From Escherichia coli (lineage in GTDB: Bacteria; Pseudomonadota; Gammaproteobacteria; Enterobacterales; Enterobacteriaceae): 64,000 bases of DNA. The notes beneath the pieces are model-generated. The model did no database searches and was not told the DNA's origin. It saw only the letters and a program-made list of their open reading frames with translations. The position numbers were made by a program, and so were the translations under genes. The stretch is taken from assembly GCF_024700885.2 (NCBI RefSeq), contig NZ_CP117016.1. One strand, given 5' to 3'. The first letter of the stretch is position 1; each line of letters opens with the position of its first letter. Shown one piece after another: positions 53,658 through 53,952 of this stretch.

Positions 53658-53952
53658 ATACACTTCATCCTTCAAACTGCCTCTTCGTTGGCTGCTAGTT
53701 ACTCGGCTCATCCATGAGCCTCGCCCTTACGGGCCACCGTTACACGGTGTTCAAATCTGTTCCGGACAGATTTGTCACTCACCCCAGTCACTTACTTAAT
53801 GTAAGCTCCTGGGGACTCATTCAGTTGCCATCTCGATGCATCTTGAATGATTTTGTGTATAGATTATGTCATCCATCAAGGAGGGTAAAGGTTGCAGGGA
53901 GAGCGCCCCGGCACTAGACTACCCGCCTCTTATTTTAGTCTGAGTCAGTGTC

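Follow-up and report, generated by a model that had tools for sequence, protein, structure and literature searches.

A strain-variable long-form ERIC repeat between acpH and queA of Escherichia coli

The structured DNA between acpH and queA in the 64,000-nucleotide window of Escherichia coli analysed here (contig NZ_CP117016.1) belongs to the ERIC repeat family. Allele comparison, primer matches, alignment and dispersion delimit a 204-bp element at 53658..53861, with a TA at either end (53657-53658 and 53860-53861). We hold with high confidence that the block as a whole, including the effects predicted for its two neighbours, is best explained as a long-form ERIC/IRU, that is, a non-autonomous, MITE-like palindromic repeat whose presence varies between strains, and not as a dedicated regulator. 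The family is long known and the long variant is documented, so the element itself is of a kind already described. Its recognition removes a false lead, in that the structure is that of a repeat element and not of a queA riboswitch or a small RNA.

The element lies in a 295-bp gap (53658-53952) between acpH, which encodes ACP phosphodiesterase on the minus strand (53076..53657), and queA on the plus strand (53953..55023), the first gene of the queA-tgt-yajC-secDF operon. Both coding sequences were placed from the list of open reading frames and from RefSeq annotation, in the case of acpH that of the identical locus in strain 104. The acpH start codon adjoins the repeat without a gap, the gene ending at 53657 and the repeat beginning at 53658. 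A sequence-only reading of the window had described about 300 bp of non-coding DNA at this place; the measured 295 bp agree, though a spacer of this length is found in only 139 of 5,426 complete E. coli genomes. The short ORF that it had called spurious-looking is indeed spurious: the 67-aa frame (53714..53917, plus strand) lies mostly within the ERIC, returned no family in a Pfam search and is missing wherever the ERIC is missing.

Membership of the ERIC family

Using ERIC-PCR primer sequences taken from PMC3696847, we located ERIC2 with one mismatch at 53776-53797 (minus strand) and ERIC1R with two mismatches at 53799-53820 (plus strand), both on the central dyad and facing outward; none of 100 shuffled sequences gave any match. 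When compared with bona fide ERIC copies, an alignment on which the assignment could have failed, the block could be aligned over its whole length with the ERICs found at four further places in E. coli (hsdR-hsdM, puuC-puuR, nudB-aspS and gppA-rhlB). The 127-bp form is dispersed throughout the species, being present in 5,425 of 5,426 complete genomes at a median of 12 places per genome (range 3–18). Reviews on ERIC give a length of ~127 bp, terminal inverted repeats, TA termini and copies that vary by strain, and mention 14 additional ERIC loci in non-K-12 E. coli.

Like the repeats described as ERIC, IRU or RU-1 (Sharples & Lloyd 1990; Hulton, Higgins & Sharp 1991), the element is an intergenic, imperfect palindrome of the ~127-bp type that forms a single long hairpin, with a primer-matching central dyad, terminal inverted repeats with TA ends, ~12 copies per E. 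coli genome and strain-variable presence. Unlike the canonical form, the acpH-queA copy has an extra internal module of 77-79 nt.

The terminal inverted repeats lie at 53657..53683 on the left, where they were recovered both by an inverted-repeat search and in the fold of the acpH 5' region, and at 53835..53861 on the right (27 nt, 74% complementary to the left copy). The central ERIC dyad (ccccagtcacttac / gtaagctcctgggg, 53782..53814) was likewise found as an inverted repeat, and comprises ccccag at 53782-53787 and ctgggg at 53809-53814 within 14-nt arms (53782-53795 and 53801-53814). This is the dyad named in the sequence-only reading; the pairing is real, but the actual site is ~10-15 nt to the left of where it had been put. 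Across five E. coli ERIC copies we recovered one common long hairpin of 35 pairs, nine of them compensated, and within the dyad itself four of the six ccccag/ctgggg pairs show compensatory changes.

The 204-nt block has a minimum free energy of -74.9 kcal/mol on the plus strand and -82.5 kcal/mol on the minus strand, compared with about -43 and -49 kcal/mol for shuffled sequences (z = -7.9 and -7.7, respectively), and none of 200 shuffles folded as well. With z about -7.8 against shuffles, the region is indeed strongly structured. A direct repeat, TCATCC(T/A)TCAA (53665 and 53869), was considered as the remnant of a second ERIC end or as a pair of deletion endpoints and was rejected; an 11-mer direct repeat with one mismatch is close to chance expectation in 400 bp, and the predicted deletion product differs from the empty allele.

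Searching the whole window with Rfam 15 covariance models at gathering thresholds gave no matches, and a search of the region at E<=10 gave only snoR31, V_AS5 and c-di-GMP-II, all at chance level and far under threshold (best E = 0.64 to 8.6); the Rfam check proposed in the sequence-only reading therefore yielded no RNA family for the spacer. The sole model that touches the ERIC core is that of the Vibrio antisense RNA AS5 (RF02818; 53780-53827, minus strand), which scores 18 bits against a gathering threshold of 96 (E = 0.64). This Rfam family may overlap an ERIC-like repeat in Vibrio.

Three states of the site in E. coli

We surveyed 5,426 complete E. coli genomes and found the site in three states. 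It is empty, with a 92-bp spacer, in about 4,600 genomes (among them K-12 MG1655, O157:H7 and M3); it holds a 127-bp ERIC in a 218-bp spacer in 682 genomes (among them AH04, the type strain ATCC 11775 and Nissle 1917); and it holds the 204-bp ERIC in a 295-bp spacer in 139 genomes, represented here by the window, strain 104 and APEC O2-211. Filled sites, long and short together, thus amount to 821 of 5,426, and ~85% of genomes are without the block; of the 295-bp spacer, these match just the final ~90 bp. Each of the 821 filled genomes agrees with one or the other ERIC spacer allele at an identity of at least 99%.

The insert in the short allele measures 126-127 bp. Between the long and short alleles the ERIC arms are 100% identical, and the sole difference is a 79-nt segment that takes the place of 2 nt after GGCTGC, a junction that is no simple indel. 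In the empty allele, TTCAT is followed by a single C and then GATTAT; in the filled alleles, TTCAT is followed by the element, which runs from ATACAC to GTGTATA, and then by GATTAT. Terminal inverted repeats and a TA at both ends are present, and the empty allele has TC where the TA target would be expected; as it reads CAT-C-GATTAT and not CAT-A-GATTAT, no clean TA duplication is seen. The ERIC sits where a TA and the first base of the acpH start codon overlap, within the back-to-back promoter region of acpH and queA.

Immediately right of the ERIC, filled and empty alleles also differ over 20 bp (53862..53881; GATTATGTCATCCATCAAGG in the window, GATTATATTCTATCCAAAAG in K-12), and the alleles compared show no difference in the last, promoter-proximal 70 bp of the spacer. 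The pre-insertion haplotype, an ERIC-type right flank without the ERIC, was sought in the 5,426 E. coli genomes and was not found. The 295-bp spacer of the window (53658-53952) is 100% identical to that of strain 104 (positions 1501-1795 of our locus L001), and the genes on either side have diverged between the two strains, at 36 of 582 positions in acpH and 22 of 1071 in queA; the acpH of the window is nearest to that of an empty-site strain. An identical spacer between divergent flanking genes suggests that the spacer allele arose recently compared with its flanks or was moved by recombination.

A second strain-variable segment lies on the far side of acpH. Between malZ and acpH, the window has a 507-aa ORF (51532-53055, plus strand) within an island of 34-37% GC, flanked by DNA of ~54% GC. 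A Pfam search with this ORF gave no match. In strain 2016C-3878 the annotation shows a gene for a hypothetical protein (WP_000155948.1) in the same place, next to acpH on its upstream side; in strains 104, AH04 and M3 the ORF is absent and malZ adjoins acpH directly. The island looks like a small horizontally acquired insertion.

Start sites and predicted effects on acpH and queA

In K-12, Kim et al. 2012 (PMC3415461, Table S1) placed the transcription start of queA, on 27 reads, at 424209, leaving 26 nt to the ATG, and found an almost identical promoter with the same spacing in Klebsiella pneumoniae. For acpH the same study lists starts at 424202 and 424206, which lie 60-64 nt upstream of the ATG, and a third start 425 nt upstream, antisense inside queA. 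Because none of the alleles compared differs in the promoter-proximal 70 bp, we mapped the K-12 starts onto the window. The queA promoter would then consist of a -35 hexamer ttgcag (53892-53897) and a -10 hexamer tagact (53915-53920), both read from the sequence and 17 nt apart, with the start at 53927 and a leader of 26 nt (53892..53927, plus strand). The acpH starts transfer to 53920 and 53924 on the minus strand, from low counts in K-12 (4 and 9 reads), with a -10-like TAAAAT at plus-strand positions 53932-53937 (53920..53937 in all). As mapped in K-12, the acpH and queA starts, which are on opposite strands, are separated by only 3-7 bp, and the two promoters are back to back and overlap at 53915-53937.

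Relative to the mapped queA start, the ERIC block spans -270 to -66. With the start at 53927 and the end of the block at 53861, the block would sit upstream of the queA promoter and therefore outside the queA leader. A cis-acting leader of the queA-tgt-yajC-secDF operon, whether riboswitch or attenuator, would accord with the strong predicted structure and with the position upstream of queA, and a leader structure had been among the suggestions of the sequence-only reading. We nonetheless regard it as extremely improbable: in K-12 as in Klebsiella, queA transcription starts downstream of the block, 26 nt before the ATG; the operon is kept without the block in ~85% of E. coli genomes; and the block matches no Rfam family and is a dispersed repeat found at unrelated loci.

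For acpH, the K-12 start sites lead to a different placement. Both promoters would lie to the right of the ERIC, and since the acpH starts mapped near its ATG are right of an element that abuts this ATG, the ERIC would be transcribed leftward within the acpH 5' UTR. The UTR would thereby grow from 60-64 nt to about 263-267 nt. Read back from the annotated ATG, the acpH frame also meets no stop for a further 18 codons and extends into the module-bearing ERIC, giving a 211-aa ORF (53076-53711, minus strand). Annotation keeps the standard acpH start despite this open frame; ERIC-derived ORF extensions are known from reviews.

A comparable arrangement is found in Salmonella. In the ybtA-ybtP spacer of yersiniabactin loci on Salmonella IncC/pESI-type plasmids, we found a ~202-bp homologue (positions 2501-2702 of both L005 and L006 in our set) that is 79% identical over the whole element. 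A study of Salmonella Infantis (PMC11225919, Gut Microbes 2024) described a "201-bp insertion sequence" upstream of ybtA on pESI, placed it within a RACE-mapped ybtA 5' UTR of 266 nt and considered it distinct from ERIC. Because the alignment shows ERIC arms and core, we identify this insertion, by its sequence, as a long-form ERIC with the same four-hairpin module, which, contrary to the 2024 description, clarifies what the unexplained insertion of this epidemic plasmid is. The pESI copy resembles the acpH copy in its module, in its orientation to the leftward gene and in its place in a divergent promoter region, and its 266-nt UTR is comparable to the 263-267 nt deduced for acpH. It differs in locus, in being plasmid-borne and in its distance from the start codon (40 bp rather than 0).

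In the filled alleles, none of the native sequence upstream of the acpH AUG is left, the ERIC having taken its place, and the minus strand of the left terminal repeat provides a Shine-Dalgarno-like AAGGAUG upstream of that AUG. The predicted mean pairing probability of acpH positions -20 to -1 is 0.67-0.71 in the ERIC alleles versus 0.20 in K-12. On this prediction, the ERIC terminal stem would pair the AAGGAUG and the bases up to the AUG and so occlude the ribosome-binding region. Such occlusion, a thermodynamic prediction only, may lower acpH translation or make it conditional, or may alter mRNA stability. According to reviews that summarise De Gregorio et al. (2005), ERICs co-transcribed with genes in Yersinia alter mRNA levels or stability, and the acpH copy would resemble those elements in being co-transcribed with its neighbour and in having a hairpin near translation signals. 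The Yersinia effect was reported for ERICs situated downstream of genes, in which an RNase E site is unmasked by ribosomes, whereas the acpH ERIC would be located in a 5' UTR.

A second predicted effect concerns Fis. Slany & Kersten (1992) report an upstream activating sequence, containing a high-affinity Fis site, ahead of the queA promoter, and the Fis-dependent promoter named in the sequence-only reading matches this activating sequence of the tgt/sec promoter. As a crude measure, we counted in 15-mers the positions that agree with the Fis consensus core given in PMC2018646. K-12 has two Fis-like sites by this count, GATTATATTCTATCC centred at -58 of queA (11/15) and GCTAAAAAATTCATC at -73 (10/15). 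The Fis site of Slany and Kersten is reportedly centred at -58, with a roughly two-fold activation, and we take the K-12 15-mer at -58 to mark its position. At this position, which is covered by the allele-specific flank (53862-53881), the ERIC alleles read GATTATGTCATCCAT and score 6/15 by manual count. The other site loses its terminal C and is moved from -73 to -199 in the short allele and -276 in the long allele; in the window the consensus-core scan recovers it as GCTAAAAAATTCATA at 53644..53658. The ERIC insertion point thus falls exactly between the two K-12 Fis-like sites. Their separation, together with the degradation of the -58 site, would be expected to weaken Fis activation of the queA-tgt-yajC-secDF promoter, and judged from these sequence changes a weakened Fis input to the operon is plausible.

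It is quite possible, though in our estimate not probable, that the ERIC is a neutral passenger, its presence making no measurable difference to the expression of acpH or queA. Neutrality would be compatible with the near-invariance of each of the two ERIC spacer alleles across widely differing flanking haplotypes, with the weak expression that acpH has in any case (PMC3415461), and with the pESI homologue, which left YbtA/Fur regulation and Fur binding in place (PMC11225919). Against this stand the complete replacement of the native sequence upstream of the acpH AUG by sequence predicted to be paired, the location of the ERIC between two Fis-like sites of a promoter that Slany & Kersten report as Fis-activated, and the changed mRNA levels that reviews, after De Gregorio et al., associate with co-transcribed Yersinia ERICs. 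We favour a long-form ERIC with predicted effects on both genes. The natural series of empty, 127-bp and 204-bp alleles could be used to measure the effect of an ERIC on a 5' UTR and on a Fis-dependent upstream element.

The internal four-hairpin module

Comparison of the short and long alleles places the module at 53696..53774, where the canonical 127-bp ERIC has just a variable spot of 2 nt. Single-sequence folds give four hairpins: H1 (53705-53720), H2 (53723-53734), H3 (53735-53749) and H4 (53752-53774), the last of these a perfect 9-bp hairpin (53752-53760 / 53766-53774). The module was found in 142 of 5,426 E. coli genomes, at one place in each; 139 of these matches are at 95% identity or more, the same number as there are carriers of the 295-bp spacer, and three are weaker, including one on a plasmid. 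No donor copy elsewhere in E. coli was found among the 5,426 genomes.

To look across genera, we took one genome from each species and searched it for a pattern built on two of the module hairpins. The scan returned 26 loci, comprising 24 long ERICs (in Citrobacter, Klebsiella, Raoultella, Serratia, Leminorella, Enterobacter, Pseudocitrobacter and Intestinirhabdus), one ERIC-like element with a different core and one chance hit. None of the 26 hits was a free-standing module outside ERIC arms, and none of the long ERICs from other genera lay between acpH and queA. Counting the Salmonella plasmid copies, the module occurs at the same internal ERIC site in 26 other copies, and it is a conserved four-hairpin unit at that site in many Enterobacterales.

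Across the resulting 27 copies, 94.1% of module stem positions form a standard pair, versus 29-43% when the partners are slid by 1-3 columns, and single-sequence folds recover the four hairpins in most copies. Eight pairs show double-sided changes, and none of 500 shuffles reaches the observed covariation score; as the inner pairs of H2 and H4 are fixed by the search pattern, the informative covariation comes from H1 and H3. These cross-genus compensatory changes point to constraint on the module hairpins.

We looked for signs of a preferred strand. Long ERICs occur in gene contexts of every kind (divergent, convergent and co-directional), and in eight of nine co-directional contexts the strand in the sense of acpH would be the one transcribed, a figure based on crude ORF calls with some of the loci orthologous. 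This strand is also the more stable in 20 of 27 copies (p = 0.007), with GUAA as the H2 loop. Wobble asymmetry as a strand indicator shows no bias (19 versus 16, p = 0.74), and for this reason we do not claim an RNA role over a DNA role.

A small RNA had been among the suggestions of the sequence-only reading. The compact, conserved hairpins and their covariation would suit an independent RNA of this kind, equipped with a promoter and a terminator of its own, and one sub-threshold Rfam match, to Vibrio AS5, covers the ERIC core. We find this reading very unlikely. The structure is that of the ERIC repeat and the Rfam matches are at chance level; no T run follows any hairpin; and the sequence family is found in every gene context, with a wobble asymmetry that prefers neither strand. 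A scan of both strands of the block found no promoter-like or intrinsic-terminator-like sites, but because it also missed the experimentally mapped queA promoter it is uninformative here.

The palindromes could also act as DNA, forming cruciforms or single-strand hairpins for a transposase, a recombinase or a nucleoid protein, or serving as a recombination hot spot. Strand-symmetric conservation of the stems fits such a role, as do the identical spacer in divergent flanks, which suggests local recombination, and the report that the same ybtA position has been hit by two ERIC forms in different species (PMC11225919). Reviews, however, know of no cognate ERIC transposase, and the greater stability of the acpH-sense strand with its GUAA loop and its predominance in co-directional contexts lean the other way, although neither is decisive. 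Overall we judge a DNA-level role to be improbable.

A slightly better prospect, but still an unlikely one, is that the module is more than an old insertion frozen within some ERICs and is a functional unit in its own right, either a selected RNA domain or a hairpin-guided mover that enters and leaves ERICs at one site, and that the alleles tune acpH translation and Fis activation. Hairpins at both ends and a fixed insertion site are seen in the module; for the 77-nt module only, we considered a derivation from hairpin-guided single-strand transposons of the palindrome-associated IS200/IS605 type, which would go with subterminal hairpins, site-specific insertion without target duplication and a cognate Y1 transposase in the genome. 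If it is a functional module, the acpH-queA locus would capture its recent gain or loss; this reading of a recent event is based on the identical arms, the junction that is no simple indel and the lack of any other copy in E. coli. Our preferred interpretation remains the long-form ERIC, for which there is precedent: two reports from 1997 (Cromie, Collins & Leach; Sharp) describe ERICs with well-folded internal insertions, and the acpH-queA copy is like those long ERICs in carrying, at one specific internal position, ~70 bp of inserted sequence that folds well by itself.

Finally, in some long ERICs of Raoultella and Klebsiella the right arm contains a further hairpin module that resembles the first (for example, GCCTCGCCCCTTCGGGGCCAGCGCAAGCGCTG). 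Such right-arm copies were seen in our loci L030 (about 5800-5880), L032 (about 1270-1346) and L023, and mark a second specific internal insertion site.
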